From: Escherichia coli
Lineage (GTDB): Bacteria > Pseudomonadota > Gammaproteobacteria > Enterobacterales > Enterobacteriaceae
Reading direction: 5' to 3' (one strand)
Length of the DNA: 64,000 bases
Assembly: GCF_041886205.1 (NCBI RefSeq)
Contig: NZ_CP169029.1
Below the pieces are notes generated by a model, which was not told where the DNA came from, did not search any database, and was given only the letters and a program-made list of their open reading frames with translations. A program made the position numbers and the translations under genes. Positions 2,545 through 59,142 of this stretch are shown one piece after another; position 1 is the first letter of the stretch; every line of letters starts with the position of its first letter.

Positions 2545-3189
2545 GTGCGATATGACGAAGAATTAATGGAGAATGTGATGATCAGGCAGAAGATTCTACA
2601 GCAGCTCCTGGAGTGGATTGAGTGCAATCTTGAGCACCCTATTTCAATCGAAGATATCGCACAGAAATCTGGCTACAGCAGACGCAACATCCAGCTTCTG
2701 TTCCGAAATTTCATGCATGTGCCTTTGGGAGAATACATTCGCAAACGAAGGCTTTGTCGTGCCGCCATTCTTGTCCGGCTCACCGCAAAATCTATGCTTG
2801 ATATTGCACTCTTTTTGCATTTTGATTCACAGCAGTCATTCAGCCGCGAATTTAAAAAGTTATTCGGCTGCTCTCCCCGTGAATACCGCCACCGTGATTA
2901 TTGGGATCTCGCAAATATCTTCCCTTCTTTTTTAATACGTCAACAGCAAAAGACGGAGTGTAGATTAGTCAACTTTCCTGAGACACCTATTTTTGGCAAT
3001 TCATTTAAATATGATATTGAAGTGTCGAATAAATCACCGGATGAAGAAGTCAAACTGCGACGTCATCATTTAGCCAGATGTATGAATAATTTTAAGACGG
3101 ATATCTATTTCGTCTCCACGTTTGAACCGTCAACAAAATCGGTCGATTTGCTCACGGTTGAAACTTTTGCCGGTACGGTATGCAGGTGA
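2545..3189 (+). CDS. AraC/XylS-family transcriptional regulator, 3'-truncated by IS1 (stop codon supplied by the IS1 left end)
   Basis: N-terminal HTH region (IEDIAQKSGYSRRNIQLLFRNF...SQQSFSREFKKLFGCSPREYR); the ORF ends at TGA 3187-3189, which lies inside the IS1 terminal sequence GGTGATGCTGCC starting at 3185. Possibly the ykgA-type regulator; not confirmed. Confidence 0.7.
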   Translation: MRYDEELMENVMIRQKILQQLLEWIECNLEHPISIEDIAQKSGYSRRNIQLLFRNFMHVPLGEYIRKRRLCRAAILVRLTAKSMLDIALFLHFDSQQSFSREFKKLFGCSPREYRHRDYWDLANIFPSFLIRQQQKTECRLVNFPETPIFGNSFKYDIEVSNKSPDEEVKLRRHHLARCMNNFKTDIYFVSTFEPSTKSVDLLTVETFAGTVCR

Positions 3190-3239
3190 TGCTGCCAACT
3201 TACTGATTTAGTGTATGATGGTGTTTTTGAGGTGCTCCA

Positions 3240-3515
3240 GTGGCTTCTGTTTCTATCAGCTGTCCCTCCTGTTCAGCTACTGACGGGGTGGTGCGTAACG
3301 GCAAAAGCACCGCCGGACATCAGCGCTATCTCTGCTCTCACTGCCGTAAAACATGGCAACTGCAGTTCACTTACACCGCTTCTCAACCCGGTACGCACCA
3401 GAAAATCATTGATATGGCCATGAATGGCGTTGGATGCCGGGCAACCGCCCGCATTATGGGCGTTGGCCTCAACACGATTTTCCGCCATTTAAAAAACTCA
3501 GGCCGCAGTCGGTAA
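3240..3515 (+). CDS. insA: IS1 InsA (transposition regulator/DNA-binding)
   Basis: 91 aa [43 protein letters not shown]... matches IS1 InsA. Confidence 0.92.
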
Positions 3516-3937
3516 CCTCGCGCATACAGCCGGGCAGTGACGTCATCGTCTGCGCGGAAATGGACGAACAGTGGGGCTATGTCGGGGCTAAATCGCGCCA
3601 GCGCTGGCTGTTTTACGCGTATGACAGGCTCCGGAAGACGGTTGTTGCGCACGTATTCGGTGAACGCACTATGGCGACGCTGGGGCGTCTTATGAGCCTG
3701 CTGTCACCCTTTGACGTGGTGATATGGATGACGGATGGCTGGCCGCTGTATGAATCCCGCCTGAAGGGAAAGCTGCACGTAATCAGCAAGCGATATACGC
3801 AGCGAATTGAGCGGCATAACCTGAATCTGAGACAGCACCTGGCACGGCTGGGACGGAAGTCGCTGTCGTTCTCAAAATCGGTGGAGCTGCATGACAAAGT
3901 CATCGGGCATTATCTGAACATAAAACACTATCAATAA
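3434..3937 (+). CDS. insB: IS1 InsB (transposase catalytic part, normally expressed as InsAB' by frameshifting)
   Basis: 167 aa ORF overlapping the insA 3' end in another frame; sequence ...[21 protein letters not shown]...MTDGWPLYE... typical of InsB. Confidence 0.88.
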
Positions 3938-4004
3938 GTTGGAGTCATTACCAACGATCAAATTCAAACCAGCATGAAACTTTATTAAGCGTATAACCCC
4001 ATCT

Positions 4005-4256
4005 TTATTGGCTATCTGGAGAGATTTTATGAACATATTCCAATTTCCCCTTTGGATTTAATTCAACTATTCCTGCTAGGTATAACCAGTCAAGAGATAA
4101 AACAAAAATTGATATAGACATTTCAATTTTTTTCTTTGTTTCGTAAAAAAGATCTATCAATTCAATTTCATCGAAACGTTTCAGCGTATCTATAATAAAC
4201 CCACCGTTATAATATAAGCTATCTTTAGGATGAATGTCCTTTGGTAACAACATCAT
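4005..4256 (-). CDS. Hypothetical small protein, 83 aa, overlapping the 3' end of the 326-aa gene (likely same operon)
   Basis: ORF start overlaps the upstream gene's stop by ~32 bp; same strand; same AT-rich composition; ends 53 bp from the IS1 right end. Confidence 0.45.
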   Translation of the reverse strand: MMLLPKDIHPKDSLYYNGGFIIDTLKRFDEIELIDLFYETKKKIEMSISIFVLSLDWLYLAGIVELNPKGKLEYVHKISPDSQ

Positions 4257-5205
4257 TCACTCCGTTAGGGTCCCTAAAAATTTTACAGCGTATGAACGCG
4301 TCCACTGCAAGTATACTAACACAAAGCTCCAGTTCCTCTAATGGTATTTGTGTAAAATTTGCACTTTTTCTGACCATTTCAACAGAGCTGTCAATTATTT
4401 TAAAAAATAACTCATCTCCAGTGTATTGTGTACTCAATTTTACGAAGATAGTTCTAAAGGAAGACAAAACTGAAAGGCTTGAGTTTTTACCCATCTGGTT
4501 GAACTCTGAATAAATGCGGGATACTTTTCCATGATGGATTTTGTAATCTTCAATAATATATTCAGCTGCATTCAAATTATTAAATGTAATCTTGTCAGTT
4601 ACATCGAATGGTTGCGGGAAGTCAGTAGTTTCAACATTAGAAAAATCCTCCTTAGCTAATATATTTATAACAGCAGCAATATTTGTTTCGATTAAAACAT
4701 TATCAGATTCCTCTTGTAACTCATTTTTTAGAAAACCGTGTATTTCTTTCTGTTTTGTTATGTCAAGATGTGAAATAACATTAAGTATCGATTTTACATC
4801 ATGAATATCTTGCTGCGGTATAAAAACCAAAGCATGAGGATTAGTGTAAGTTTTATTTCTTAAATCACTAGCATCTTTTGCAATTGATATAAATTTAAAC
4901 TGATGGCCTTTATATAATCTTAAGTCTTTGTTCAAGGCTGAATCAATTTTTGTTTTAGTTGCAGTTGATGAAACCTGTAATACTATCTTCCCATTCTCAT
5001 CGATAAGATCGATACCCTCAAAATTATGCTTCTCTTGATTAGTATTCTTTAGGGAATACCCAAATAATAAATTAAAGAAGTGAACATAAAAATCTTCACA
5101 ATGAAGATTATAGTTAAGAATATTTAACTTCCCTCTTAATTCAACGCTATAGCATAGCAACGTAAGCCTTTTCTCACATAAATCAAAATAAATAGATCTG
5201 TTCAC
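4225..5205 (-). CDS. Hypothetical protein, 326 aa, AT-rich accessory gene (possible phage-defence/abortive-infection-type effector; unverified)
   Basis: Long uninterrupted ORF in a visibly AT-rich block between IS1 and tRNA-Thr; no family recognised with confidence from sequence alone. Confidence 0.6.
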   Translation of the reverse strand: MNRSIYFDLCEKRLTLLCYSVELRGKLNILNYNLHCEDFYVHFFNLLFGYSLKNTNQEKHNFEGIDLIDENGKIVLQVSSTATKTKIDSALNKDLRLYKGHQFKFISIAKDASDLRNKTYTNPHALVFIPQQDIHDVKSILNVISHLDITKQKEIHGFLKNELQEESDNVLIETNIAAVINILAKEDFSNVETTDFPQPFDVTDKITFNNLNAAEYIIEDYKIHHGKVSRIYSEFNQMGKNSSLSVLSSFRTIFVKLSTQYTGDELFFKIIDSSVEMVRKSANFTQIPLEELELCVSILAVDAFIRCKIFRDPNGVNDVVTKGHSS

Positions 5206-5458
5206 ACATATTATCCTTAAACTATAAACTAATCCGATATTATGAACTTAGGTAAAGTAGAAAAACTCTTCACAGATCTTACAGCATCTACGAGCTGGTT
5301 CAAGGTATGTTGAGATGGATTGAGATGTGTAGCGTATCTTCTCATTCCAAAAAGAAACCTGCCACAATTTTGCCACACTCACAACGCGCAAAAATGCACA
5401 TTTGTGTTAAGAAAAGCAAAACAACGCAACAGTAACCAGATGATTTTATTAGAAAAAA

Positions 5459-5534
5459 TGGTGCCGATAATAGGAGTCGAACCTACGACCTTCGCATTAC
5501 GAATGCGCTGCTCTACCAACTGAGCTATATCGGC
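5459..5534 (-). tRNA. thrW: tRNA-Thr
   Basis: Reverse complement reads GCCGATATAGCTCAGTTGGTAGAGCAGCGCATTCGTAATGCGAAGGTCGTAGGTTCGACTCCTATTATCGGCACCA (cloverleaf, CGU anticodon context, 3' CCA); located next to proA as expected for thrW. Confidence 0.9.
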
Positions 5535-5648
5535 CCTGAAAGGACATGTTCACGAACGTGAATCACGGTGGACAAGGTTAAAACTAACCGGGCGATGCGT
5601 CAATGGCCTTGTGAATCAAATGGCTACTTTTGCATCACCCGGTTTTAT

Positions 5649-6902
5649 TTACGCACGAATGGTGTAATCACCAATGCCGATCCACTTGTAAGTGGTCAGT
5701 GCTTCCAGCCCCATTGGGCCACGCGCGTGGAGTTTTTGTGTGCTTACCGCCACTTCCGCACCCAGTCCAAACTGGCCGCCGTCGGTAAAACGCGTAGAGG
5801 CGTTAACATAAACAGCGGACGAATCCACTTCGTTAACAAAACGCTGGGCGTTGCGCATATCGCGGGTCAGGATCGCATCGGAGTGTTGTGTGCCGTGTTC
5901 ACGAATATGGGCGATGGCATCGTCAAGATCGCTGACGATTTTGACGTTCAAATCTAATGACAGAAACTCATCGTCATACTCTTCGGCTTTAACAGCAACC
6001 ACCTTCGCAGGGCCTGCCTGCAACTGCGCCAGTGCAGCTGCATCAGCGTGTAACGTCACGCCACTTTCCGCCATTTGTTTGCTTAATGCGGGCAGGAAGC
6101 TATCGGCGATATTTTTATTCACCAGCAACGTTTCTACCGTATTACACGTGCTCGGACGCTGAGTTTTCGCGTTGACGATTACTTTCAGGGCTTCAGCGAT
6201 CTCTGCACTTTCATCAACATAAATATGGCATACGCCTATACCACCAGTGATCACCGGGATTGTCGACTGCTCGCGGCACAGTTTATGCAAACCAGCTCCA
6301 CCACGCGGGATCAGCATGTCGATGTATTTATCCATACGCAGCATTTCACTGACCAGCGCACGGTCAGGATTATCAATCGCCTGCACGGCACCCGCCGGTA
6401 AGCCACAGGATTTCAGGGCGTCCTGAATCACCGCCACCGTTGCCGCGTTAGTGCGACAGGTTTCTTTGCCACCACGCAGGATCACCACGTTACCGGTTTT
6501 CAGGCACAGGGAAGCGACATCAACCGTCACATTCGGACGCGCTTCATAAATCACGCCAATCACCCCCAGCGGCACGCGACGGCGCTCCAGACGCAGGCCA
6601 CTGTCCAGTACGCCGCCATCGATTACCTGCCCCACCGGATCGGCGAGGTTGCACACCTGACGTACATCGTCGGCAATGCCTTTCAGCCGTGCGGGCGTCA
6701 GTGCCAGACGGTCAAGCATCGCTTCGCTAAGGCCATTGGCTCGCGCGTCAGCAACATCCTGGGCGTTAGCGTTGAGGATGATTTCGCTTTGTGCTTCCAG
6801 TTCATCGGCGATTTTTTCCAGCACGCGATTTTTTTCGCGGCTGGAGAGTTGCGCTAATTTATACGAGGCTTGCTTCGCGGCAATGCCCATTTGTTCCAGC
6901 AT
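5649..6902 (-). CDS. proA: Gamma-glutamyl phosphate reductase
   Basis: 417 aa [37 protein letters not shown]...; full-length aldehyde-dehydrogenase fold; directly downstream of proB. Confidence 0.95.
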
Positions 6903-6913
6903 CAGCCTGCTCC

Positions 6914-8017
6914 TTAACGGGTAATCATGTCATCACGGTGAACGGCAACCGGGCCGTATTCATATCCCAGTATTGCATCAATTTCTTGCGAGTGGTGTCC
7001 GGCAATACGGCGTAATGCATCGCTGTTGTAACGACTGACGCCGTGGGCGATATCGCGGCCTTCGAGGTTGCAAATGCGGATGACTTCACCACGCGAGAAA
7101 TTGCCAGTCACGCTTTTAATGCCTTTCGGCAACAGGGAGCTGCCGCGTTCAAGAATGGCGGCGGTTGCCCCTTCATCTACCGTGATTTCACCCGCAGGCG
7201 GCGCACCGAAAATCCAGCGTTTACGGTTTTCAAGCGGAGTCGCCTGGGCATGGAACAGCGTACCGACGGAAATGCCTTCCATCACATCACCAATGACGCC
7301 CGGCTTGCTGCCCGCGGCAATAATGGTGTCGATACCCGCACGGCAAGCCACGTCCGCGGCCTGCAATTTGGTACTCATGCCGCCAGTTCCGAGGCCTGAA
7401 ACGCTGTCACCGGCAATCGCGCGCAGTGCGTCATCAATGCCGTAAACATCTTTAATCAGTTCTGCCTGCGGATTGCTGCGCGGATCAGCGGTGTACAAAC
7501 CTTTTTGATCGGTCAGCAGCAACAGTTTATCGGCACCCGCCAGAATCGCCGCCAGCGCAGAAAGGTTATCGTTATCACCGACCTTAATCTCTGCCGTAGC
7601 GACAGCATCGTTCTCATTGATTACCGGAACGATATTGTTATCGAGCAACGCACGCAGGGTGTCGCGGGCGTTCAGGAAGCGTTCACGGTCTTCCATATCA
7701 GCACGAGTCAGCAGCATTTGCCCGACGTGAATGCCATAAATCGAAAACAGCTGTTCCCACAGTTGAATCAGTCGACTCTGCCCTACCGCCGCCAGCAGTT
7801 GTTTCGAGGCGATAGTCGCTGGCAGTTCCGGGTAACCCAGGTGCTCACGTCCGGCGGCGATCGCGCCCGACGTCACAATAACAATCCGATGCCCGGCGGC
7901 ATGTAACTGCGCGCACTGGCGAACAAGTTCAACGATATGGGCACGGTTCAGACGGCGCGATCCGCCTGTTAGCACACTGGTGCCGAGTTTTACCACCAGC
8001 GTCTGGCTGTCACTCAT
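6914..8017 (-). CDS. proB: Glutamate 5-kinase
   Basis: Product begins [19 protein letters not shown] (internal Met of track ORF 6914..8104); amino-acid kinase domain plus C-terminal PUA-like region; 367 aa. Confidence 0.95.
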
Positions 8018-8205
8018 GATTCTCTGCCATTCAATTTTAGGAAAAATGATATCAAACGAACGTTTTAGCAGGACTGTCGTCGGTTGCCAACCATCTGCGA
8101 GCAAAGCATGGCGTTTTGTTGCGCGGGATCAGCAAGCGTAGCGGCAGTTGTTTACGCTTTCATTACAGATTTAATAAATTACCACATTTTAAGAATATTA
8201 TTAAT

Positions 8206-8232
8206 CTGTAATATATCTTTAACAATCTCAGG
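8206..8232 (+). promoter_or_regulatory. Putative PhoB-binding site (Pho box) in the phoE promoter
   Basis: CTGTAATATATCTTTAACAATCTCAGG about 75-100 bp upstream of the phoE start; CTGTAAT/CTTTAAC-type repeats resemble Pho boxes. Call by resemblance only. Confidence 0.4.
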
Positions 8233-8304
8233 TTAAAAACTTTCCTGTTTTCAACGGGACTCCCCCGCTGAATATTCGCGCGTTAATTAAAATCAGGAAT
8301 GAAG

Positions 8305-9360
8305 ATGAAAAAGAGCACTCTGGCATTAGTGGTGATGGGCATTGTGGCATCTGCATCCGTACAGGCCGCAGAAATATATAACAAAGACGGTAATAAACTG
8401 GATGTCTATGGCAAAGTTAAAGCCATGCATTATATGAGTGATAACGACAGTAAAGATGGCGACCAGAGTTATATCCGTTTTGGTTTTAAAGGCGAAACAC
8501 AAATTAACGATCAACTGACTGGTTATGGTCGTTGGGAAGCAGAGTTTGCCGGTAATAAAGCAGAGAGTGATACTGCACAGCAAAAAACGCGTCTCGCTTT
8601 TGCCGGGTTGAAATATAAAGATTTGGGTTCTTTCGACTATGGCCGTAACCTGGGCGCGTTGTATGACGTGGAAGCCTGGACCGATATGTTCCCGGAATTT
8701 GGTGGCGACTCCTCGGCGCAGACCGACAACTTTATGACCAAACGCGCCAGCGGTCTGGCGACGTATCGGAACACCGACTTCTTCGGCGTTATCGATGGCC
8801 TGAACTTAACCCTGCAATATCAAGGGAAAAACGAAAACCGCGACGTTAAAAAGCAAAACGGCGATGGCTTCGGCACGTCATTGACATATGACTTTGGCGG
8901 CAGCGATTTCGCCATTAGTGGGGCCTATACCAACTCAGATCGCACCAACGAGCAGAACCTGCAAAGCCGTGGCACAGGCAAGCGTGCAGAAGCATGGGCT
9001 ACAGGTCTGAAATACGATGCCAATAATATTTATCTGGCAACTTTTTATTCTGAAACACGCAAAATGACGCCAATAACTGGCGGCTTTGCCAATAAGACAC
9101 AGAACTTTGAAGCGGTCGCTCAATACCAGTTTGACTTTGGTCTGCGTCCATCGCTGGGTTATGTCTTATCGAAAGGGAAAGATATTGAAGGTATCGGTGA
9201 TGAAGATCTGGTCAATTATATCGATGTCGGGGCTACATATTATTTCAACAAAAATATGTCAGCGTTTGTTGATTATAAAATCAACCAACTGGATAGCGAT
9301 AACAAATTGAATATTAATAATGATGATATTGTCGCGGTTGGCATGACCTATCAGTTTTAA
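8305..9360 (+). CDS. phoE: Phosphate-starvation-inducible outer membrane porin PhoE
   Basis: [21 protein letters not shown] signal peptide followed by [16 protein letters not shown]... and C-terminal ...GMTYQF (terminal Phe typical of OMP beta-barrels); 351 aa. Confidence 0.95.
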
Positions 9361-19479: not shown

Positions 19480-19784
<305 letters not shown>

Positions 19785-20372: not shown

Positions 20373-21216
<844 letters not shown>

Positions 21217-23049: not shown

Positions 23050-23191
<142 letters not shown>

Positions 23192-28951: not shown

Positions 28952-29538
28952 CTGAAGAATGGCAGCTCACGCATCCAGTTAATAAAGCACTCAGTGAAAT
29001 TTTCCAGGACTGATACAGGATACAACTCTGGCAATAGTATCGTGAACAGGAATACCATTTTCAAAATCACCATATTGCTTCAAGAAATCGAGACGTGTTT
29101 CCCCGAAATCCTCCATATCTTCCCAACTTTCTGCACCAGAAATAACGGCACAACACAGTCAACAGTAGGATGTCCGGACGATTTATGCTCCACTTTCCAG
29201 GCTCGTACTCTAATGGGGACAGACAGCAAATATGTTCCATCAATTGTTCAAGTTCCAGTTGGTTCTACCTTAATTATGTAAGGAGTATGTTGATCATGTA
29301 TAAGCTATAAAACAGCTTCAGGTAATGAGGAAGTATCTCAATTCTGAATACCTAGAATGCGAAGTATTTAGTACAAAAAAGTGAGCGTCTGACGTGATGC
29401 CTGTGTCCTAGGCGCAGCCCTTCTTTCTTTTCCTCTTCACCCTTGATGTCTTGGCAATCCCTTGGTAAATTCAGTGCCATCTTCTTTATTCCAAGTGTTA
29501 TTTAGGCTGCGTTTCCTCTTCTTATCCGGCTGGCATCT

Positions 29539-30678
29539 TCATTGATTTTCTACATATCTAACACCCAATGAAGACTGTGCTGATTCAACCAGTGCGCTCT
29601 GAGAGCACGTGCAAGTTCTCCACGCATCCATATCCTTTGATGAAATATAATATCTGATGCCCACACCTTCTGCTGATTTATCTTCTTTCTTCTGCCTGAA
29701 TGACAATGCTACACAAGAGCTTTTCAATCTCTTCCATTCTAATTCAAAGTCACAAAAGTTCAGGTCATGATACTGACAATATGCAAACGTGCACCACTTC
29801 TTCCATGCCTTGTCTCCTGGGAATTACGGGCTGCCTTTGTAATCAGAAAACACGTTCACAGGCAATTTTTCCTCGAACGCACGAGGCGATTTCCCTGATT
29901 CGCCTTATTTACTGCCAGAGATGATCTGCTATTTAATCATGTCTATAGCTATCGAAGCGACAGCTTCTAGACAGCCCATAGCAGTCAGTGGTCATCGAAT
30001 TGTTGAACTTAAAATACGAGTTAGGTTAGTAGCAACTCTGGAAGTGGCTGTAATCATCATTACTTTCGGCCTCCGAATGCCACCTGCCCCAGTACAACAC
30101 CTATTTCCGTTCGAGATATGCACTTTCACCATATGCGATTGCTCCTTTTCGTTTTCCCTCAGGAAGTAGTCTTTAACTGCTCTTCCATCTATTGCTGTAA
30201 TTTCACCATCAGTGATTTCATGGCACTCCTGTATCCATTCAATAAACATCTTTTCAAAGGCCAAGACTGTCAATGTTGCTCGCGACGCGTGCAATGCTGT
30301 CATTCGACCGTAATGCCATTGATCAAAATCACCATATTTCTTTAGCCATTCAAGTCTTTCATGTCCAAGATCTGCATTTTCTTTACCCGCATTGGCACCT
30401 GCCAACAACTGCACATACGGTGAGAACAAATAGCAGATACTTTATGTTGATAGACCGTACCTTGTCGTCGTATATCAGGGACTTACTGAAAACCGATCAA
30501 AGCAAACTTTGAGTAACACTCGCCTGCGTCCATTTTTTCTAGCTGTATTCATCAACTCCTGCAACGATATCACCTGTATGGCGTTGAAGCCCAAGATGAA
30601 GGCGTCGTGATCCACGATCGCGAATTTCAAGTATTTCGCCCCGTCCCTTGCGCTCGTGACTTTCTGTATGTATTTCAT
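29539..30678 (-). pseudogene. Second, more divergent H-repeat/ISAs1-like transposase remnant split over three frames
   Basis: Fragments ...LEWLKKYGDFDQWHY...ITAIDGRAVK... and ...VALSFRQKKEDKSAEGVGIRYYISSKDM... resemble the N-terminal and middle parts of H-rpt transposases. Confidence 0.5.
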
Positions 30679-31422
30679 GTTTTACCCAGTTCTGGTGTTG
30701 TCCAATAATGACCATCCACCGATCCAGTCAAAAACTTCATTTTTCAAATTGATACCATAACAATCAACATCGTAATGGTCTCCATAATTAATTATTTAAC
30801 AACTAGCCAACACGTTTTGATCATCAAAATAGCACCCGTTAGCGAAAGTAGCGCAGAACAATCCATAATCTCCAGTTTGCTAATGTTTCGCAATCGCACG
30901 CTATAAAGAATATCACCGAAAAAACTAACGATTTATATCAACCACTCCAGCAGAGCGACCTGAAACTCTTAACCATTATACTTATAAAATGACCATTCCC
31001 TCGACTAGTTCTCTGGTCATTAATTATTGCATAAATAATATTCACCCAGAAACATCTATCTCAACTGCTCGTTGCTGGCCCATGTCCGGTAAATATGATG
31101 TCTGGGAATTTGAATAGGGTATCAAGCCCAAAGGTAAAACAAATAAACCAGGTGGTAATTGAGAAGATGGCCAAGTTTGCCTCTGGTAATTCAAGTGTCT
31201 GAACTCCCTTGCTTTGCTTTCATTGGATTATCTGCATCCCTGGCCACCCCAACCCGTGGAGTCGCCCAGTGGCGTATTTTTCAATACGTGCATCGCTACA
31301 TTTGGCAGAAAAATCGCCACAAGCAATACCTGACAGTGTTATTTTCAGATTGATGATTCTGTCTGTAGCTGGGCGTAACCCTGTCTATCCCTGCAGCTGA
31401 TGATTTTGACCTATCATGTTAG

Positions 31423-34400
31423 CTATTGTCGCATCCAACTGGCCTGGTCAATCGACGCATCAAGTGGCAATGTCTCAATTGCATCGGCGGCCCCATTATG
31501 AGCTCCGCCAACAATAGCATCCATGGCATAACCGGGCTGGTAGGCGCTGTTAGTAATGCGGTCTGCAGCAATCAATCCAGGTACACCAGATACGGCATAA
31601 ATTAGTCCACCTGATGTCCATATTTCGATCGCATCTAGCCCCATTGGGTCTATCAAACTGCACCGGATTTCAGCGGATACTGATACAAATTCCATCCCCC
31701 CTTCAGCCCAATCGGATCCTGAGTGATATACCTCCCCTGCAGCGGGTCATAATAGCGGTGGCGGTTGTAATACAGGCCGGACTCCTCATCATACTGCTGC
31801 CCCGGCAGGCGGATAAGCTGCTGCAGGCTGATGCGGGTTCTCTTCATTCAGCAGGTTGCCCCATTCATCGTATTCTGCGCACCACGCTGTTGCCCCTTCC
31901 GTGCTGATAAGCGCCAGCGGCAGGCCGCGATGGTCGCAGTGGTACAGGTGGATTTTTCGCGCCGGCGTGTACACCGGGTCCATCTGGTTTTGCATCTGCT
32001 CCACCGTCAGGCCGCACGATGCCAGCCAGCGGCGGCTTTCCTCACTCACCCGGTCAGCCAGGATTTCACTTTCCAGCCGGTCGAGCATCTGCACCAGCAC
32101 CGGCGGGAACACCACACTGCCACCGTCTTCGCCGCCGGACTGCTGAAGGGTATCCGCCAGGCTGCGGCGCTGCGTTTTCGCCTGCTCACCGGTGGCGGTT
32201 TCAACCCTGATGAGTGGCGTGAAGCTCCCCGGCTGATAAATCGTCTGGATGCGGGTCCTGTCGTTCTGTATCGTGGTCAGCCGGTCGCCGTCCCAGCCGT
32301 ACCAGGTCACTTGCGGTTTCCGTGACAGCGACATCCAGCCCGTCAGGTCCCGTTCACGCCGCCACACCCGTTTTGCCACCCTGCGGCCCAGCGGGTCGTA
32401 AAGATAGCGACTTTCGACCAGCGGCTCTGCATATTGTGTCCGCGTGTAGTGCACCAGCCGGTGCTGACTGTCGTAATGGTACCGGTGGGTGCGCTCATCA
32501 TCCGTGCGGATAACCCCTTCCGGGATGAGGTCGGTTTTCTCCGTCAGCCTGCCGTGACGGTCATACCGGTAAAGATAGTGCGCGTCACGGGCGATACGGT
32601 TATCCGGCCACATGCTGAGGGTGCTGTCCGGGTGCAGCTCCGGGTCGGGCAGGCGGTTACCTGCCGGGTCTGTGGCATACGGGATGCGGATATCCAGATT
32701 CGCTGCGGTGGTGTGAACGCTGGTCAGCCTGCCGGTGGTGCTGTAGCTGTAACTCCGGGTCTGGCGCGGGCTGCTGATGCGGATGAGTTCGCCGTTGTCG
32801 TTCCAGGTGTAATCGCGGTCATACAGCAGGCTGTTCAGGTGCTGGCTCTGTAACTGCCCGGCAGGGGTGTAAGCGGTGGTGAGTTCATTAACGGCCGAAG
32901 CTGCGCAGCGTTTCCCGGTGCAGGCGGTCGCGGGTGTACTCCACCAGCGGTGTGTCGCCGAGTTTCATGCCTGCCAGGTAACCGCTGCCGTAGGTCAGCC
33001 ATTCCACGGCGGGCAGGCTGTCCGGTATACAGCGGTTCGCCAGCCCCTGCGCGTTGTACGCATGTCTGGTCTCATGCTGCCAGAGCAGTGCTTCCGTCTG
33101 CGGGTGATGCACCGTCTGACGTTCACCGGTCAGGCGGCCTTTATCATCATACCCGTAGTGCACCGTCACCCGGTGCCCTTCGCTGATATGGCTGATGTCT
33201 GTCAGCCAGCCGCGTGTCGTCATACTGCCACCGCTCTGCCGGTTTCACCCTTCACGGTGCGGTGCGTGAGGCGGTCTGCTTCGTCATAGTGCCAGTGGGT
33301 GACCAGCCCCTCATCCTCACTGCTGGATGAGTTTGCCGGTCAGGTCGTGGTGATAACGCTGTGTGCGGCCGTCAAAGCCGGTTTCCTGTATCGAGCCGGT
33401 CAAGCACATCGTAACGGAAGGTGGTGTGGCTGCCGTTTTCACTGGTCAGGCGGATGACCCGTCCGGCAGCATCGTATTCCATACTGCGCGTCAAGCCCGC
33501 CCTGCGTGGTACAGACGGCCTTTCCCGCGCGCATCGTACTGTGTCCCGTTTCTGCTGCCGTCCGGGGCAATAACGGCGGTCAGGTCACCGGCGGCGTTGT
33601 ATTCATACCGCGTTTCATGGCCCTGCGTGTCTTTCACCGAGCAGTTAACTGTCCACGGCTGTCGTATGCGCGGTACTGGCTCATGCCCTTCCTCGCGGTG
33701 CACCGCCGTCATCTGACCGAAACGGTCATGGTCATAGCGGGTCGTGGTAACCGGAACAGTCAGTGAAGGTCAGCAACTGACCGTAACGGCTCCACGTCAT
33801 GGTTTTCCGGTACTGCCCGTCGCATCCGTCCGTTGTCGCAGGGAAGCTCACTGTGCGCGGATTATCATAACGGTAGCGGGTGATATCGCCGTCAGGGGCG
33901 AGTCTCCTGAATCAGACGTCCGTATTCATCATATTCCCGGCGCATTTCCAGCCCGTCCTGGCCCGGTAGCTGACGTTAACTGGTTGTGGTCGTTATAGTG
34001 AAACGCCGATGCCCTGCCATCCGGCGTGGTGATGCGCGTGATGAGCGCCGCGACACCACATCCGGGCTGTACTCTGTCTGTCCGGCCTGCGGCATCCGTC
34101 TGTGCCTTAAGCCTGCCCACCGCATCAAACTCGACTCTGCGTGACGCTGCCGTCCGCGTGTTCCTTTTTCACCACCCGCTTCAGCCCGGCTTCGCCCTGC
34201 GTGTGCAGCACTTCACGGCGGTTCAGGCTGTCGGTGATGGTGATGCGGTCCTTCTCATACTGATAGCGTGTAGCTCCAGAGCCTGCCGGGTTGAGCTGCT
34301 TCGTCACCCGCCCGGTCACTCGTCGTACCGGTAGCGGATTTCCGGCCGGCCCGCGTAACGGTGCGCCACCATCCGGCCCCGGTGTTGCATCATCGTAAGT

Positions 34401-35441
34401 GAAAGCTGCGCACCTGCGTTCCGCTGCGGTCATACACCGCCGCGCAGTTCGCCGCGCTGGCCGTCCAGCGTGTAGCGCGCCAGCGGCGCGGCAGGCTGAA
34501 TTCTCCGGGTATGCCGGGTCGTGCGTCAGCCACACCGCCGACAAGACGGATGCCGTTGTCCGGGCCGTATTCGGTGTACCCGGGCAGTGTGTCGAGGAAA
34601 AGCGGACGGTTCCGAGACCGGCGGGAAGATAAAGAGTGCGCGCTGCTCGGGCTTGTCCTGCCCGCTGCGCCTGCGTGGTCAGCACCAGCCGGAAGTGACG
34701 CCCGGCACCGTCCGTCACGCCGGTGATTTCGCCGCCGAATGTCACCCGCCGGCCTCGCGGTGGAACGTCAGCGTCCGCCCGAAGCGGTCCGCCAGCCCGG
34801 TCAGCACCCGGTACGGCGGCAGCGCGCGCAGGCAGCACCTCGTCCGCTTCCGGCACCCGCTCACGACCAGCCGAGCAGCCACCACGGCCCCTGCAGCGCT
34901 GTTCGTCGCCAGATAACGATGCGGACTTAAGCGGATATCTTCCGGCAGCGCCTGCCAGAGTGCGCCTAGCCGTGTGACCGTTCATCCAGCTCCGCCACGC
35001 CGCCGCGCACCAGCCACAGTGACTCGCTGCGGCTGTAGCCGTCCTCGCCGGGAAACAGCGTGCTCAAAGTGACAGGCTCCTGCCGCCGTTGTCAGCTGAG
35101 TATCAGTGCGTCATCGCGCAGCTGTAAGCGGATATCCGCAGGCGCTTTCAGCCGGGGCCGAGGCTCCCCACCGGCGCGGGCGTTCTGGTCCGGTAGCTGC
35201 TGTAGGTGCGGGAGAGGATGAACGGCAGCGGGCGCGGGCAGGGCGATGTCGGTCTCGCCGGGCAGGCACCTTCGCACCGAGCAGCGGATTGACCGGATGG
35301 CCGGACGTCACCCCGCCGGACACGCCGAACAGGCCACGCCGGTGGGCGCGCCGATGCGCACCCGGCTGCCGAACCCTCGGACAATGCCGCGGCCGCCTTG
35401 CGGGTCATGTCGCCCTGACGCGCCGCCGGTTTTCCGCTCAT
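31423..35441 (-). pseudogene. rhs: rhs (Rhs YD-repeat toxin) element, extensively frameshifted; includes the C-terminal tip after the DPxGL motif
   Basis: Canonical N-terminus MSGKPAARQGDMT at 35441; YD-repeat core fragments in at least 8 different ORFs; core end ...[31 protein letters not shown] at ~31653; the tip ORF (31423..31695) contains IDPMGL. Confidence 0.78.
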
Positions 35442-35569
35442 GAATCAATTCCTCTTTCTGCTTATTAATAATGGCTTGTCTGTTACTGCACCAGTACCGT
35501 TTTAACAGGTGCACCCGACCCTAGTACTGCTCGCATATCCGGCGTATCCGGGGGGTGAATCTTTCGGCA

Positions 35570-37693
35570 TCAGGCGTCATCCGGTGCGGGATCGTCGAGG
35601 CTGCCACAGTTCCAGTTAATCAACTGGCGCAGTCACCGTTCACCTGCTCGACTCACCCTGCCAGAGTGAATGTGCGTGCCGTTGAGAAAGATTGCTGCCG
35701 TCCTTCGTCAGCACCAGCCTTGCCTCACCACAGCAGAGCTCCAGATGCCACAGGCGAGATAAACTCGCGGTCTGCCCGTGTGTCAGTCCTTCATTCGTCT
35801 TCTACCACCGGTGAAAGGCGGCGTGATTCCCCACATTGACGTCTGTAGCCCAGCCCGACCCTGAACCAGTGATCCGAAGCAGCCCTGCCTGTGAGGACTG
35901 CAACAGACGCCACCGAGGTGTGGTCGTAATGCCGCCTACCGTCGTCTGGTACGCCCACCGTCAGCGCACGAACGAGTCGCCACCGTTTCCACTCTGAACA
36001 GAACCCACGTTGATGATCTGGTTACCGCCCACCGTCTCCACACTGGTTCATCCCCCACTCGTCTGTATCTGATTAACGCCAATGTTCTGGATCTGGTTAT
36101 TGGTACCGGCGATCGCCTGGTTGTTGCCAATGGTCTCGGCATGGTTGTTTATCACATCCGTGGTGCGGTTATTCAGCACCTCAGGTGTTCATCTGTCTTC
36201 TGCGCGTGGATGTAGACCTGTTCTTTCCCTGTCGCATCGTCAAACTTCAGTTCATTAAACCCGCTGCCCGTATACGTTTTCGAGCGGATGGTCATCTGCG
36301 TCTTCGTTCCGGCAGGCTGCCGGGTGTGCGGTTTTCCTGGTGGTAGGTACGCCCCATAATGATCGGCTGGTCCGGATCGCCGTTGAGGAAGTCCACAATC
36401 ACCTCCTGACCCACACGCGGTATCGCCAGGTGGCCAAAACCGGTGCCTGCCCACGCCTGTGCCACACGGATCCAGCACGAACTGTCTTGGTCTGCCGGGT
36501 TATAACGGTCCCAGTTGAACTTCACCCGCACGCGACCATGTTCGTCGCAGAAGATTTCCTCGCCTGCCGGTCCTGTCACGACAGCGCTCTGCGGGCCGTC
36601 AACCAGCGGTTTCAGCAACGGCTGTGGTCGCCATGTTCTGTCTGCCGGGATCACCGCAAAATGGTTATCCAGCGCCGTCCCCGCTCCCTGCCGTCCTGGC
36701 ACCGCCTGTGGCTGTTCGCCGTGCAGTTCACTTGCCACCACCTGCCATTCCCGGTTCAGGTTCGCCTGCGGATGCCCCGTCAGCACAATTCGCCGTCCCG
36801 GCCATATCTCCGGCGAGCGGCTTGTTCCCCGCGCGGTTTCTGCGTTGTTGCGCCAGCCGTCCATCTGCCAGCGGGCAAAGTTCTGCCCGTGGGCACTCTC
36901 GAAACGTCCGGGGTAGTCATACACTTCATACTGCGTGCGCTGGTAGTCCTGGTGCTGGCCTTCCTGTTCAAAACGTCCGGCCCAGCCGGGTCGCTTAAAG
37001 GTGTAGTCTTTGTGTTCACCACGGAAGAAGGGCGGATTTGTGCGCTGTAGCGGAACTGGCTGATGCAGAGGGTGCTCACCTCGGTACGGGTGTTCGGATT
37101 CCAGGGATTTCAAAAGATTCGGGCAGATAACGCGACTGTGTCGCACAGCACCAGGCTCTGGTCGGTACTTTTGTAAGCATGCTCCTCATAAAAGAAGATG
37201 CCTTCCTCCGCCGCCATCCGGCACAGGAAATCGTAATCAGTCTCACCGTACTGGACACAAAACTCACGGGAAGGATGCGGCTCGCTGAACAGCGGACTCC
37301 ATTCGGTCACCCCGTTTTCCTGCAACATCGTGCCGAGGATGCTTTCGATGTCCTCGTTCTGGAAGATACGGAAGTTCTGGCGCAGACCGGCACGCCACAG
37401 CGGCGGGTGCACCTTCATGCTGTACAGCATCTGGTTTTTGTCGTTCTCCCCCAGTTCAAACCAGGTCACCACACCTTCACCCGGCGCTGTACGTCATCGC
37501 CCTGCCATACCGTCAGGTAGGCCATTTTGTCCAGCACCTGCGCAAATTCAAGGGAGAGAAACTGCTGGCTGACCAGAGAGAGATCGAGGGAAAAAAGCGA
37601 AGAGAGTGACTGGTTCAGATGAAAGGAAACCACCGCAAACGCATCCGGTGGCAGGCCGTCCACTTCCAGTGTGAAACGTAATCCGGTTGACAT
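35570..37693 (-). pseudogene. vgrG: vgrG (T6SS spike protein), split across at least 5 frames; 3' boundary approximate
   Basis: N-terminus MSTGLRFTLEVDGLPPDAFAVVSFHLNQSLSSLFSLDLSLVS at 37693; gp27/gp5-like fragments continue in ORFs 37110..37472, 36292..37146, 36173..36478, 35936..36142. Confidence 0.75.
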
Positions 37694-37857
37694 AGCAACC
37701 TCTGGGGTTAGGAAAAACAGACAGTTCGCTGTTAAAGCGGCTGTGACAGTACAGTGTTACGCTTGCGTTCAGGCACGCTACCGCCGAGTTTTCCGGCAGT
37801 CGCCATCTCCCTTGCTAGTACCCTAACTGACAACCTTTTTTTTATGGTGTAATACAA

Positions 37858-37890
37858 AAACAGCATCCGGCCTGATAGCCGGATGCTGTT
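37858..37890 (-). terminator. Rho-independent terminator downstream of hcp
   Basis: On the minus strand, hairpin CAGCATCCGGC-tatcag-GCCGGATGCTG followed by TTTTTGT, 9 bp after the hcp stop. Confidence 0.55.
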
Positions 37891-37898
37891 GGCTTAAC

Positions 37899-38425
37899 TT
37901 ATGCTTCCAGCGGTGCGCGCCAGTCGTCGGCACCGGAGGTGCCAGATTTGACGTGTTCCCATTCAATTTTCGCGGTAGGCCAGTGAAACTTCGAGCAACT
38001 GGGTGAACTCGCGTTTCGCCGGGTCCTGGCAATGCGGCATATGCAGTTCTCATATCGCCAATCGTCGAATCAGTCAGGCGGGGAGCGAGATAGTGCTCCT
38101 GTTTGCCTTCCACAGAGGTACGCCACCAGTGAAGTTCAGCGGTTGGGCAGCATTTCGCCGGAGGCCAGTGCGTTGTACATCAGCGGAACCGCTTTGTTCA
38201 GCGCCACGGTAAAAATGAAAGGCTTGTGAGCGCACGCTGACCCGCAGGCTGACCGGACTGAGGATCGGTCCGCACAGATAACGTTATGCAGGAATTCCTG
38301 CACCAGCATCTCCGTCTTCGTGCCCCTGCACATAGATGTTGCCGACAGAATCAGCGGTAAATGCACCTGCAGTAATATTTCCCTGGGTCTGACCAGTGAT
38401 GGAAGATATAACACGGTGTTGGCAT
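37899..38425 (-). pseudogene. hcp: hcp (T6SS inner-tube protein), frameshifted
   Basis: Start codon at 38425 encodes MPTPCYI...; internal ...HKPFIFTVALNKAVPLMYNALASGE...; C-terminus ...SGADDWRAPLEA* ending at 37899; the length (527 bp) is not a multiple of 3 and the frame changes at least twice. Confidence 0.8.
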
Positions 38426-39135
38426 TTGTAAACTCCTTGTTAACGTGGTTAATTACTACTTACAATGACCTGCCGTTAATCCCAGACAGGCAGATGCAGC
38501 TCACTTCACGGAACCGCATCATTTTTCAGTATTTTTTACATACAAACCGAGCTAGAATTTACGGTTGTCGTAAAAACTATTTTTAAAATCATTACATAAC
38601 TCTCATTCAGCAAATAACTTAATAATATATATCTGGATAGCCATACCCAACTGTTCAAAGTCCGTATTGCCTCCATAAAATGGCCAACAGCGCGAACCAA
38701 CTGAAAATAAATATTGTATTTATCCTTTCTGAATTATCATTTTGATAATTTTTGAAGATATTCCTTAAAAATACCCACTTAATCAATCACAGTAAACACA
38801 TGTATAAATAAGCAATCATTAGATTAGCTCATGTTTAATGAAATTATTATATACTTCAATAAGTTACATAAAAAATCTATATTTAAATTATTGCCATAAT
38901 ACACCTGACGCGAATTGCACAGGTTCACACAATCTATTTAACGCTTGCAGAATACCCCTCTTTACCATCGATAAAAAGTCCTTTTCTTATTTATTTTGAA
39001 GCGTAAAATGCGGGGTGATGAAGGAGCTGGTGATTTTATTTTCACCGCCATTAGGGCGGCATTGCCGATATTTTTTTGCGGTACAAATATGCCGTGTTCA
39101 TGGCCTGTACGAGATAACATGACGGATTACTTTTA

Positions 39136-39647
39136 TGAGCAAAAAATTTGAAGGCAGCGTCGCGCCTCGCGAGCGTATTAACATATCGTATGTCCCAAAA
39201 ACAGATGGCCAGACGGCTGAAGCGGAACTTCCGCTTAACATGCTCGTTGTCGGCGATACCGGAAATACGCAGGAAAACATCCCCACTGGATGAACGTCAG
39301 GCAGTTTCCGTTAACAAGCACAATTTCGGTGCAGTGATGGCTGAAGCAGCCATTGGCCTCAATTTTACTGTCCCCGCCACGCCTGAAGGGAAGCACAACA
39401 GACGATGAACTGAATGTGGCGCTGAATATCAAATCACTGGAAGCTGACTCTTTCACCAGATAGCGTGGCCCGGCAGGTTCCGGGAAGCGAGTAGTAATCG
39501 CTGGAACTGCGTGAAGCACTGACTGCACTGAAGGGGCTCGGCTGGGTAAACCTTCCGGCATTCCGTACCCAGCTCCAGGCATTGCTGGAAAATGAAGAGT
39601 CCCGCGAGCAGTTGCTCAAAGAAATCGGTCTGGTGAGCAATAAATAA
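39136..39647 (+). pseudogene. tssB: tssB (T6SS sheath small subunit, VipA-like), frameshifted with in-frame stops
   Basis: MSKKFEGSVAPRERINISYVPKTDGQTAEAELPLNMLVVGDTGNTQENIP then frame loss; continuation LDERQAVSVNKHNFGAVMAEAAIGLNFTVPATPEG in another frame; TAG-TAA inside the expected coding sequence. Confidence 0.8.
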
Positions 39648-39682
39648 CCACCACGATTCCATTAAACAGGGTTATCCAGGAC

Positions 39683-41461
39683 ATGACGGCACACAAAAAT
39701 ATCTCCGGGACATACCACCTCTCTGTTGCAGACATTCTGCAGGTGCTTTACCAGGTATGTTTCAGCCCGTCCGTTGAAATCAACCAGGACTGGTGTGGCT
39801 GCGCTGATTACAACACTGGATCGCCGTATCAGTGATCTATTGGATGAGATTATCCATTTTTGTGAGTTTCAGCAGAGCGCGTCGCACTGGCAGCGCGTAC
39901 TTCACTGATGGCGAAAGGCCGGTTCCAGAAACACAGCTAAAACAGAAGGATTTTCAGTATGTCTTTACAGGAAGAGGAACTCTGTTCCCAGTCATGCCGG
40001 GCAGCCTGGAGCAGGCATCGTCGCTGCTTGATCAAATCATGGCACAGACCCGTATTCAGGCCCGGTTCGGAAGGTTATGACGTTGCCCGCCAGGGTGTGA
40101 CAGCCTTTATTGCCAGCATCCTGCAATCCACTGCATCTGCCGAACCGGTCAATAAACTGGCCGTGGACAGCATGATTGCAGATATTGATGAACGCATCAG
40201 CCGCCAGATGGATGTCATCATCCAGGGCGCGCCTGCCTTTCAGCAGGTCGAATCGTTCTGGCGCTCACTGAAAACCATGGTGGATCGCGTTGATTTCCGT
40301 GAAAACATCAAGGTCAACGTGCTTCATGTCACCAAAGCAGGGAACTTCTGGAAGACTTTGAGTTTGCGCCAGAAATTATTCAGTCCGGATTTGATCAAGC
40401 ACGTTTATTCGTCCGGATTCGGACAGTTTGGCGGTGAACCCATCGCTGCCGTGCTGGGCGCTTATGAGTTCAAAAATACCGCGCCTGACATGAGACTGTC
40501 GGCAAGACGCCAGTGCCGTGGGCGCAACGGCGCACGCACCGTTCCTGTCCTCCGTTTCCCCGGCGGAGTTTATGGGGCTGAACTCGTGGACCGAACTGCC
40601 TAATATCAAAGATCTTTATGCCATCTTTGAAGGTCCGGCCTACACCAAATGGCGCGCCCTGGCGTGACTCGGAAGATTCGCGCTGGATTCAGGGCTTACG
40701 GCACCCCGTTCTTCCTGCTTCGCCAGCCCTGGTCACCAGCAGATAACCCTGTTAAGAAGCTTTAACTATCACGAAGATGTCAGCCAGAACCACGAAGATT
40801 ATCTGTGGGGTAATACGGCCTGGATGCTGGCATGCAATATCGCAGACAGTTTTGCCGAATACCGCTGGTGTCCAAACATTATCGGCCCGCAAAGCGGCGG
40901 CGCGGTGAAAGATCTGCCGGTGCATCTGTTCGAAACGATGGGGCAGATTCAGGCCAAAATCCCAACCGAGGTGCTGGTCACCGATCGCCGCGAATTTGAA
41001 CTGGCTGAAGAGGGTTTTATCACCCTGACCATGCGTAAAGACTCTGATAATGCAGCCTTTTTCTCTGCAAACTCGGTACAAAAACCTGAAGCACTTTCCG
41101 GGAAAAGATGCAGAAACCAACTATAAGCTGGGTCTGCAGTCTCCCTGATCTCTTCATCATCAACCGGTTAGCGCACTACATCAAGGTGTTGCAGCGTGAA
41201 CATACTGGGGTCATGGAAAGAAAGGAGCGACTTAGAGAGGGCAGCTCAGACACCCTGGATCCGTCAGTATGTTGCCGACCAGGAAAACCCGCCGGACGGA
41301 CGTGCGCAGCCCGCAAACCTCTGCGCGCAGCCAGAGTTGAGGTTATGGATGTGGAAGGCGAACCCGGCTGGTACCAGGTTGCGCTAAGCGTGAGGCCTCA
41401 TTTTAAATTTATGGGGGCAAATTTTGAGCTTTCCCTGGTCGGCCGGTTAGACAGGGAGTAA
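39683..41461 (+). pseudogene. tssC: tssC (T6SS sheath large subunit, VipB-like), split over several frames
   Basis: Fragments in ORFs 39959..40603, 40824..41126 and 41108..41461; C-terminus ...YVADQENPPDG...VEVMDVEGEPGWYQVALSVRPHFKFMGANFELSLVGRLD is VipB-like but distributed over two frames. Confidence 0.75.
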
Positions 41462-41467
41462 CACACC

Positions 41468-41828
41468 ATGAGAGTACCGGATCGGGAAAAGAACCACAGG
41501 TTCTCTTTTTTGAGCGTATGGAAGCCTCTTCGGCCAGAAACCGGGCAGGGAGGCAGTATTCATTCGCTCAGGCAATCCATTCGCCAGAACCTGACGAAAC
41601 ATTCTGAGTACCCGGTCCGGTAGTTGCCGGGGTGCGCCTGAGCTGGGCATTGATGAACCGGAAGGGGCTGAAAACTTCCGCGAATCCATGAGTCGGGCCA
41701 TCGAGCAATGTATAGAACGCTATGAACCCCGGATCTCACACGCTGAAGTGCAGGCAGTGGTTTCATCCGCCTCCAGCCCGCTGGATACGGCTGCTTCATA
41801 TTACAGCCTGGGTGACATTTCAGTCTGA
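41468..41828 (+). pseudogene. tssE: tssE (gp25-like baseplate component), frameshifted
   Basis: MRVPDREKN...SIHSLRQSIRQNL... then stop; continuation ...ESMSRAIEQCIERYEPRISHAEVQ... in another frame. Confidence 0.55.
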
Positions 41829-41894
41829 AACGCATGAGGTGCTTGAATTTGATATGGCACCGAATGCAGCCAGCATTACCGGGTGGACTGACAA

Positions 41895-43701: not shown

Positions 43702-43729
43702 CCGTTGTGAACACAGAAAGCCAGGAGAC

Positions 43730-44637
43730 ATGGAAATGGACGGAAAGAATCGGGCAGCATCCTCTTATCTGAGTCCGGGAAATCCCCCGGCAGATAAAGA
43801 GCAGAATGATCCGCTGGCACAGGTTTTCCATAATGCCTGCTCTTACAATTTTTTTGCGATGGCGGGCTCGTTGCACCGCCTGGCAAAGGGTGAAAGGGGA
43901 CGCCAGAATTATCCCTGCGTGACGATCCGGCACAGGAAACCCTGCGTTTCAGCGCCGATGCCAGCCTTGCCTTCCCGTGCAGTGATATCAGTGCACTGAA
44001 ACGGGATACGTCAGGGGCATTCAGGATGACCACCACCTTTATGGGGTTACAGGGGAGCCAGTCGCCTCTCCCCGGTTATTACCTCGATCACCTGGCCTGG
44101 AAAGCGGTACATGAACAAAGTCCGGTAGGTGATTTTCTGGATATGTTCAGCCACCGCCTGACCCAGTTTGTCTGGCATATCTGGCGTAAGTACCGCTATC
44201 ACATCAGTTTTCGTAACGGCGGTGTGGATGCGTTCTCGCAGCGCATGTACTCCCTTGTCGGGCTGGGCCACCGCCAGCTTCGCGATAAGCTGGCGATTAA
44301 TCACAGCAAAATGCTGGCGTATTCCGGGATCCTGGCAAATCCGGGATGATCCCCGGAAATAATCTGTGGCCTGGTGTCCCACTGCTTTGATTTGTCAGAA
44401 GTGACGCTGCAAAACTGGCAACGTCGCAAGGTGGATATTGAACCGGATCAGCAAAATAGTCTGGGGAGCTATTCTCTTAAAAATGGCGAAAAACTGGCGG
44501 GAAGATCGGTACTGGGCAACTTTGTTCTGGGTACACGAGTGCCCGATCTCAGCGGAAAATTCCAGCTCAGTATTACCAGCCTGACCCGAAAACAGTTCCT
44601 CTCTTTCTGCCGTCTGGCGAAAACTTCCTGCCACTGA
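43730..44637 (+). pseudogene. tssG: tssG (baseplate component), at least one frameshift
   Basis: ORFs 43730..43999, 44026..44349 and 44374..44637 are consecutive pieces in different frames; position after tssF. Confidence 0.6.
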
Positions 44638-59099: not shown

Positions 59100-59142
59100 C
59101 TTACTGTAATAACATAATAAATTACTATTGCGGAGAGATAAA

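Follow-up and report, generated by a model that had tools for sequence, protein, structure and literature searches.

A remnant operon between IS1 and thrW

The stretch analysed here, 64,000 nt of the Escherichia coli contig NZ_CP169029.1 (hereafter the window), contains an AT-rich block located between an IS1 element and the threonine tRNA gene thrW, which is on the minus strand. Between thrW and IS1 there are two complete minus-strand genes and the stub of a third one. It is highly probable that the locus is a SMEK-type short Lamassu operon (also called ABC-three component system, ABC-3C; ABC, ATP-binding cassette), which was disabled recently; that it has lost its function completely is, in our estimate, also probable, if with somewhat less certainty. 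The features of the locus are as follows:

2578-3184, plus strand: truncated Rob/AraC-type regulator gene (ykgA-like; NCBIfam RobA/SoxS-type helix-turn-helix), 202 of 285 codons left
3185-3952, plus strand: IS1, 768 bp, with insA/insB and terminal inverted repeats at 3185-3207 and 3930-3952; deletion junction
3953-4036, minus strand: 5' stub of an lmuB-type DUF2326 ABC ATPase gene, 28 codons plus 1 nt, ATG at 4036, last base 3953
4005-4256, minus strand: lmuC-type middle component gene (MC6), 83 aa, intact, overlapping each neighbouring gene by 32 nt
4225-5205, minus strand: lmuA-type effector gene, 326 aa, intact, GTG start, SMEK_N and ABC-3C C-terminal domain (CTD) 10
5206-5458, minus strand: AT-rich leader from thrW to the first gene, 253 nt, identical in the E. 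coli strains M3 and USMARC-49610
5459-5534, minus strand: thrW, tRNA-Thr (anticodon CGT; ARAGORN, Rfam tRNA 71.8 bits), an integration hotspot bordering the island

The GC content of the block (3953-5458) is 31.7%, as against a mean of 52.1% (standard deviation 6.5%) for segments of 1506 nt in the window, and no other such segment in the 64 kb is equally low. The flanking core has a GC content of 54.9% in proA-proB and 56.9% in betA. A preliminary description, made from the letters of this DNA alone, had pointed out the block, and its coordinates, open reading frames (ORFs) and composition were all confirmed. The start and stop positions of the 326-aa and 83-aa ORFs are those called by RefSeq in E. 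coli M3, where the same tRNA gene occupies the same position relative to the operon. The block is best explained as the part next to the tRNA gene of a small genomic island that was acquired horizontally at thrW. The promoter of the operon is presumably in the leader; in a scan of 3900-5600 for sigma-70 consensus promoters and terminators, no site fell within the leader, and the total was below that of shuffled sequence.

The effector and the middle component

The 326-aa protein matches two Pfam families, SMEK_N in residues 11-144 (4.8e-38) and CTD10 ("C-terminal domain 10 of the ABC-three component systems") in residues 175-310 (3e-32); NCBIfam also returned SMEK_N, as a partial match (3e-33). 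A variable N-terminal enzymatic domain followed by a C-terminal ABC-3C domain is the architecture expected of Lamassu type II/ABC-3C effectors. The sequence AAGGA lies 8 nt upstream of the GTG start codon.

The only PADLOC matches of the effector were Argonaute-associated restriction endonuclease families, not Lamassu models. This is because SMEK_N is homologous to the nuclease domain of a short-Argonaute partner protein: a profile built from 60 effector sequences matched PDB 26bh_D, the Mrr domain of the Mrr-APAZ protein of the Kordia jejudonensis prokaryotic Argonaute system, over approximately 165 residues (5.9e-19). SMEK_N thus has an Mrr-like PD-(D/E)xK nuclease fold, i.e. the core fold of restriction endonucleases, and the residues H35, E37, D66, D69, Q77, S79 and K86, which are invariant among the effectors, are kept in the Kordia protein. 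By analogy, SMEK_N is predicted to have nuclease activity. Fold searches grouped the effector model with LmuA, and the top Foldseek match in the PDB was chain B of 9a6c, an integrative YydD-YydB model (probability 1.00, weak E-value of 0.079).

The 83-aa protein is identical to WP_196613384.1 and matches Pfam MC6 ("ABC-3C system Middle Component 6", 1.5e-23), the matches to MC8 and MC7 being weaker. It had no match among PDB sequences, NCBIfam or PADLOC profiles. The small gene sits between the effector and ATPase genes, as Lamassu type II/ABC-3C requires, and it is on this family match and gene position that we classify it as lmuC-type.

The ATPase gene is a stub in the window and complete in E. 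coli M3

The full operon is present in E. coli M3 (NZ_CP010183.1), where it encodes WP_001082070.1, WP_196613384.1 and WP_000470135.1, named in RefSeq "ABC-three component system protein", "ABC-three component system middle component 6" and "DUF2326 domain-containing protein", DUF2326 being a Pfam family. The 1506 nt shared by M3 and the window differ at one position (99.9% identity), the difference is synonymous, and the effector and MC6 proteins are identical. In M3, as in the window, the operon lies immediately downstream of thrW. The two loci diverge in the third gene: M3 has the gene of a 581-aa ATPase followed by higA and traJ/trbJ/trbL remnants, whereas the window has IS1 and the truncated ykgA-like gene. 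Nothing else of the M3 island is present in the window.

The ATG of the lmuB stub lies 32 nt inside the MC6 gene and its reading frame runs into the IS1 end at 3952; up to that point there is no nucleotide difference from the beginning of the M3 gene. The 53 bp between the 83-aa ORF and IS1, together with the 32-nt overlap, consist of lmuB codons, therefore this DNA is coding sequence and not a spacer between the module and IS1. When the profile of the ATPase family was searched against the window, the stub alone matched, at profile positions 1-30 (E 8.1e-11). The PADLOC profile LmuB also recognised the stub, weakly (0.041).

Since IS1 cuts the gene after codon 28 and Walker A (G45-T52) lies beyond the cut, all catalytic motifs have been lost. 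A Lamassu assignment calls for an ABC ATPase of SMC/Rad50 type (SMC, structural maintenance of chromosomes) with Walker A, coiled coil, signature and Walker B in the same operon, and the operon of the window lacks one. The intact M3 protein matches the PADLOC profiles PDC-M68B (2e-33) and, over nearly its full length, LmuB (2.1e-11). In 34 aligned homologues Walker A (G45-N-N-V-G-K-T-T52), an ABC signature-like motif (S487-S-G-K-K-Q492) and a Walker-B-like motif (F516-L-L-N-D520, followed by K-K-E) are invariant. There is no CxxC zinc hook in the M3 ATPase sequence. Its AlphaFold2 model (predicted local distance difference test 80.6) consists of N- and C-terminal head halves connected by long helices (197-456), and a fold search placed this model with LmuB.

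It had been suggested in the preliminary description that the module may be the surviving part of a larger system, cut by IS1, which lost an NTPase or an integrase. This holds, the missing NTPase being the 581-aa LmuB-like ABC ATPase; no integrase accompanies the operon in M3. Of the checks proposed there, the structure searches placed the effector and ATPase models with LmuA and LmuB, the PADLOC profiles gave the matches mentioned above (LmuB on the stub, Argonaute-associated endonucleases for the effector, none for MC6), and comparison with other genomes revealed the DUF2326 ATPase gene as the third conserved partner, in third position.

A three-gene unit

The same genes occur in the same order, SMEK_N+CTD10, MC6 and DUF2326, in Delftia, Photorhabdus and Rhodoferax, in unrelated neighbourhoods and with effectors showing 52-61% identity to that of the window. 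Judged by this conserved gene order, and by the lmuB stub in the window itself, the unit consists of three genes, not of two as was thought initially. Public data contain more than 2,000 effector clusters and more than 4,500 ATPase clusters at 90% identity. Plasmid-borne homologues are found in Clostridium, Priestia and Caballeronia.

A tblastn search with the effector against 50,697 phage records returned no match, therefore an origin as prophage cargo is unsupported and was dropped. In Rhodoferax aquaticus (CP036282.1, 1-7901) the cassette directly follows genes of a CI-type repressor, a Mu-type transposase and an AAA_22 (MuB-like) protein, and a Mu-like prophage or transposable element may carry this copy at its border.

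The IS1 junction

IS1 has removed not only most of lmuB but also the 3' end of the ykgA-like gene on its other side. In E. coli wlxctx60 the full 285-aa ykgA-like gene extends past the equivalent of window position 3184 and is followed by fdeC. The 9-bp sequences flanking IS1 (3176-3184 and 3953-3961) are different, CGGTATGCA and AACGATCAA, i.e. there is no target-site duplication. The nearest complete relatives, 6EVA and wlxctx60, are 100.0% identical to the window over proA-gpt, and in these strains thrW and ykgA are approximately 12 kb apart; the interval is devoid of Lamassu sequence and contains a decayed integrase, catalase/ferritin cargo and fdeC. A simple IS1 insertion was ruled out by the unequal 9-bp flanks and by the distance between the flanking loci in the relatives (about 12 kb or more). 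The lack of a target-site duplication and the joining of two distant loci indicate that the junction was produced by a deletion. In the window, this position lacks fdeC and its neighbours.

The most parsimonious account of how the locus arose is the following. The lineage would have had a thrW island that started with the Lamassu operon, and IS1 would have inserted into one of two loci, either lmuB or the ykgA-like gene. Adjacent deletion mediated by IS1, or recombination between two IS1 copies, would then have eliminated the DNA from lmuB codon 29 through the middle of ykgA. The lost lmuB codons 29-581 would have encoded Walker A, the coiled coil, the signature motif and Walker B. The surviving genes show no amino acid change relative to M3, which suggests that the deletion is recent. 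Among 5,426 complete E. coli genomes none has exactly this thrW/effector/MC6/IS1/ykgA junction.

Decay of the operon in E. coli

Of the 5,426 complete E. coli genomes, 48 have DNA of the operon, whole or in part; it is chromosomal in all of them, and the identity is mostly at least 99.8%. The operon is uninterrupted in 28 of the 48 (M3 and 27 other complete genomes). About 39 copies carry coding sequence, and 11 of these are disrupted, at different points. ISSen4 lies within the effector gene in two genomes (FDN-24 and FDN-9), the operon is truncated at its 5' end in two others (MB19 and S1-CAM-01-C), and effector stumps are all that is left in four (PCP06173, A30, MB50 and 720632). In three genomes (MB56, FLI21 and USMARC-49610) the effector and MC6 genes are intact and the ATPase gene is cut, at three positions other than that in the window. 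Nine further genomes have the leader only. As the breaks are at different points, inactivation must have recurred independently. Repeated breakage is usually seen with costly defence systems; it is no proof that the remnants function.

In USMARC-49610 lmuB is interrupted by a different IS1, which is 91% identical to that of the window and lies 69 bp further into the gene. The locus of this strain (USDA-ARS-USMARC-49610, 5990-8360) has two other peculiarities: the operon is preceded by 16 nt that imperfectly repeat the thrW 3' end (TCCTATTATC-GCACCA) and by a CP4-like island (cbtA/yeeU, antirestriction, ATP-dependent nuclease and UvrD-like helicase genes). It follows that a second integration at thrW displaced the operon from the tRNA gene.

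Comparison with known systems

The terms type II Lamassu and ABC-3C refer to one and the same architecture (10.1101/2025.06.23.660979). Haudiquet et al. (2025) named SMEK, HNH and lipase among the effectors as heads that only short Lamassu has, and added ABC-3C profiles to the DefenseFinder models (10.1101/2025.04.02.646746). The closest parallels of the intact operon are the short type II Lamassu systems such as Vibrio cholerae DdmABC (LmuACB) and Salmonella enterica LmuACB (PDB 9uxl, 9hqu, 9hqx). The order effector, middle component and SMC-like ABC ATPase is shared, the ORFs overlap, and the effector combines a variable N-terminal head with an ABC-3C CTD. The ATPase is of the 'short' class (~580 aa), with Walker A, a deviant Walker B and a central coiled coil, and in their predicted structures the two large proteins match LmuA and LmuB. 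The differences are in the families: SMEK_N, CTD10, MC6 and a DUF2326 ATPase here, and Cap4, CTD7, MC3 and a DUF3732 ATPase in the solved Lamassu complexes, in addition to which the ATPase gene in the window has only 28 codons.

Two other systems are related to the operon. SMEK has been treated as the nuclease domain of short-Argonaute partners (PMC10810196), and Kim et al. (2020), as cited in that article, reported RNA-guided DNA cleavage by the Kordia complex. In the Kordia SMEK/Mrr-APAZ protein (26bh) the homologous nuclease domain is fused to APAZ and controlled by Argonaute, whereas in the locus described here it is fused to CTD10 and, when the operon is intact, would be controlled by the ABC ATPase and MC6. 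A SMEK head common to Lamassu and short-Argonaute systems is another instance of the exchange of effector domains between defence systems. The second relative is the Bacillus subtilis YydB-YydC-YydD system, whose YydD is the namesake of DUF2326 (JGI annotations) and to which the effector model is linked by its match to 9a6c chain B. YydB is a protein of 481 aa, with an enzymatic head different from that of the effector here. The DUF2326 name and the fold match suggest that yydB-yydC-yydD is a sister ABC-3C/Lamassu system, which would provide cross-link evidence for contact between effector and ATPase.

What the remnant is, and whether it can act

In an intact system, to judge from Cap4-type complexes, a LmuB dimer and LmuC would keep one LmuA monomer inactive through its CTD. 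LmuB would sense phage or plasmid DNA (ends or replication intermediates) in a process that needs ATP, and LmuA would be freed. Freed LmuA would oligomerise through the CTD, and its nuclease domains would cut DNA indiscriminately, thereby aborting the infection. The sequestration-release scheme was derived from cryo-electron microscopy of Cap4-type systems, in which an A1B2C1 complex sequesters monomeric LmuA via its CTD and the active nuclease is a released LmuA tetramer; for the SMEK subtype it is inferred by analogy. Mutations in Walker A or in ATP binding of LmuB abolish defence, and protection dependent on the effector site and ATP is known for Cap4- and lipase-type systems. Mutations that suppress killing by DdmABC have been mapped to each of its three genes. 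As the sensor LmuB is missing in the window, the locus is seen as a disabled remnant, with intact effector and middle component genes and no Lamassu defence.

Some observations weigh against this interpretation. We found no experiment on a SMEK-type Lamassu in the searchable literature, and the defence and nuclease activities are extrapolated from Cap4- and lipase-type systems. The putative active site of SMEK_N, D66 ... Q77-V-S79 with K86 downstream, deviates from the classical D...(D/E)xK pattern, the (D/E/Q)-x-K triplet having Ser at its third position and an invariant Lys seven residues later. From its sequence, the site may be a variant of the restriction fold, D ... Q-x-S, in which the displaced Lys is a possible substitute. 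When the ATPase was compared, as a single sequence and as a 34-sequence profile, with solved structures and LmuB chains, only coiled-coil noise was obtained, thus DUF2326 is a distant LmuB lineage, whose link to LmuB depends on the PADLOC profile and the predicted fold. It must also be noted that the analysis covered 64 kb of the strain's genome: the rest of lmuB could have been moved elsewhere by IS1-IS1 inversion, although the gene would be split in that case, too.

That the locus represents a new kind of accessory or defence system, as was first supposed, is hardly credible. It is true that the 83-aa protein matches nothing in NCBIfam or PADLOC, that the effector has a partial NCBIfam match and PADLOC matches other than Lamassu, and that we found no published experiment on the SMEK subtype. 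Pfam, nevertheless, covers all parts of the operon (SMEK_N, CTD10, MC6 and DUF2326), identical proteins bear ABC-3C names in RefSeq, the folds group the effector with LmuA and the ATPase with LmuB, and SMEK has been published as a short-Lamassu effector. These family matches refute the undescribed-locus reading. The part of the early reading that saw a defence-type, horizontally acquired operon at the thrW hotspot is borne out by the family and fold matches to Lamassu/ABC-3C. The locus is a member of a known, catalogued kind, incomplete in the window, and its proper label is truncated SMEK-type short Lamassu (ABC-3C) rather than new defence candidate; in this respect the result adds little beyond annotation.

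A more specific question is whether the effector and MC6 form a self-sufficient two-gene module, e.g. a nuclease toxin with a small partner, that works without the ATPase. Both ORFs are intact and encode proteins identical to those of the full operon, the same pair is retained beside a truncated ATPase gene in MB56, FLI21 and USMARC-49610, and hyperactive Cap4-type Lamassu mutants with a loosened contact between LmuA and LmuBC indicate that free LmuA can act in some systems. We still consider such a module very improbable. The DUF2326 gene is third in every distant homologue examined, Lamassu defence requires a functional LmuB, and LmuA alone had no nuclease activity in vitro in one study. A single synonymous difference in 1506 nt relative to M3 is what is expected of a recent truncation and gives no sign of selection, and there are E. 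coli copies broken in the effector gene itself, in keeping with general decay. A related idea, that the pair is not inert but has been retained because it is triggered in trans by another SMC-like ATPase or acts as a low-level nuclease, or else that the ATPase is needed for activation, also seems quite unlikely. At least four independent events in E. coli have left effector and MC6 without a full ATPase (the window, MB56, FLI21 and USMARC-49610). If the ATPase did activate the SMEK effector and not only sequester it, this would be a departure from the pure Cap4-type sequestration model.

It is possible, though we doubt it, that the operon acts mainly on plasmids or other mobile elements rather than phages, as has been reported for V. 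cholerae DdmABC, and that its loss reflects relaxed selection or a cost that it imposes on plasmid carriage. Both anti-plasmid and anti-phage activities were reported for DdmABC-related Lamassu, and the proportion of disrupted copies (11 of the ~39 with coding sequence) fits a costly system. The window, however, holds nothing that bears on the target, there is no copy in the phage collection, and the plasmid-borne homologues mean that the system is tolerated on plasmids. Whatever the target, for the recently disabled Lamassu operon proposed here the broken E. coli copies are of practical value, as they constitute natural lmuB-null and lmuA-null alleles for studying the control of an uncharacterised Lamassu subtype.

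Other features of the window

A type VI secretion cluster occupies 29000-43900 (ISAs1 remnants, ydcD, Rhs core, vgrG, hcp and tssB/C/E/F/G). Its alignment to E. coli O111:H8 is colinear, the identity being only 89.8% and the number of gap openings 416 in 17 kb. At 38-43 kb, extra single bases (16-27 per kb) contrast with just 14-26 mismatches per kb, and each protein of the cluster is split across 2-4 frames, leaving almost no ORF of at least 150 aa. This segment looks like a low-quality, unpolished stretch of the assembly and not biology; the Lamassu region is clean. The second most AT-rich spot of the window, with about 35% GC (1506-nt segments starting at 59101-59301), coincides with a 303-aa ORF (59128-60039, plus strand), which had no match in NCBIfam. 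Four Rfam copies of naRNA4 (CssrE), a nucleoid-associated RNA derived from repetitive extragenic palindromic (REP) sequences, score above the gathering threshold, at 19544-19716, 20381-20458 and 23104-23181 (minus strand).
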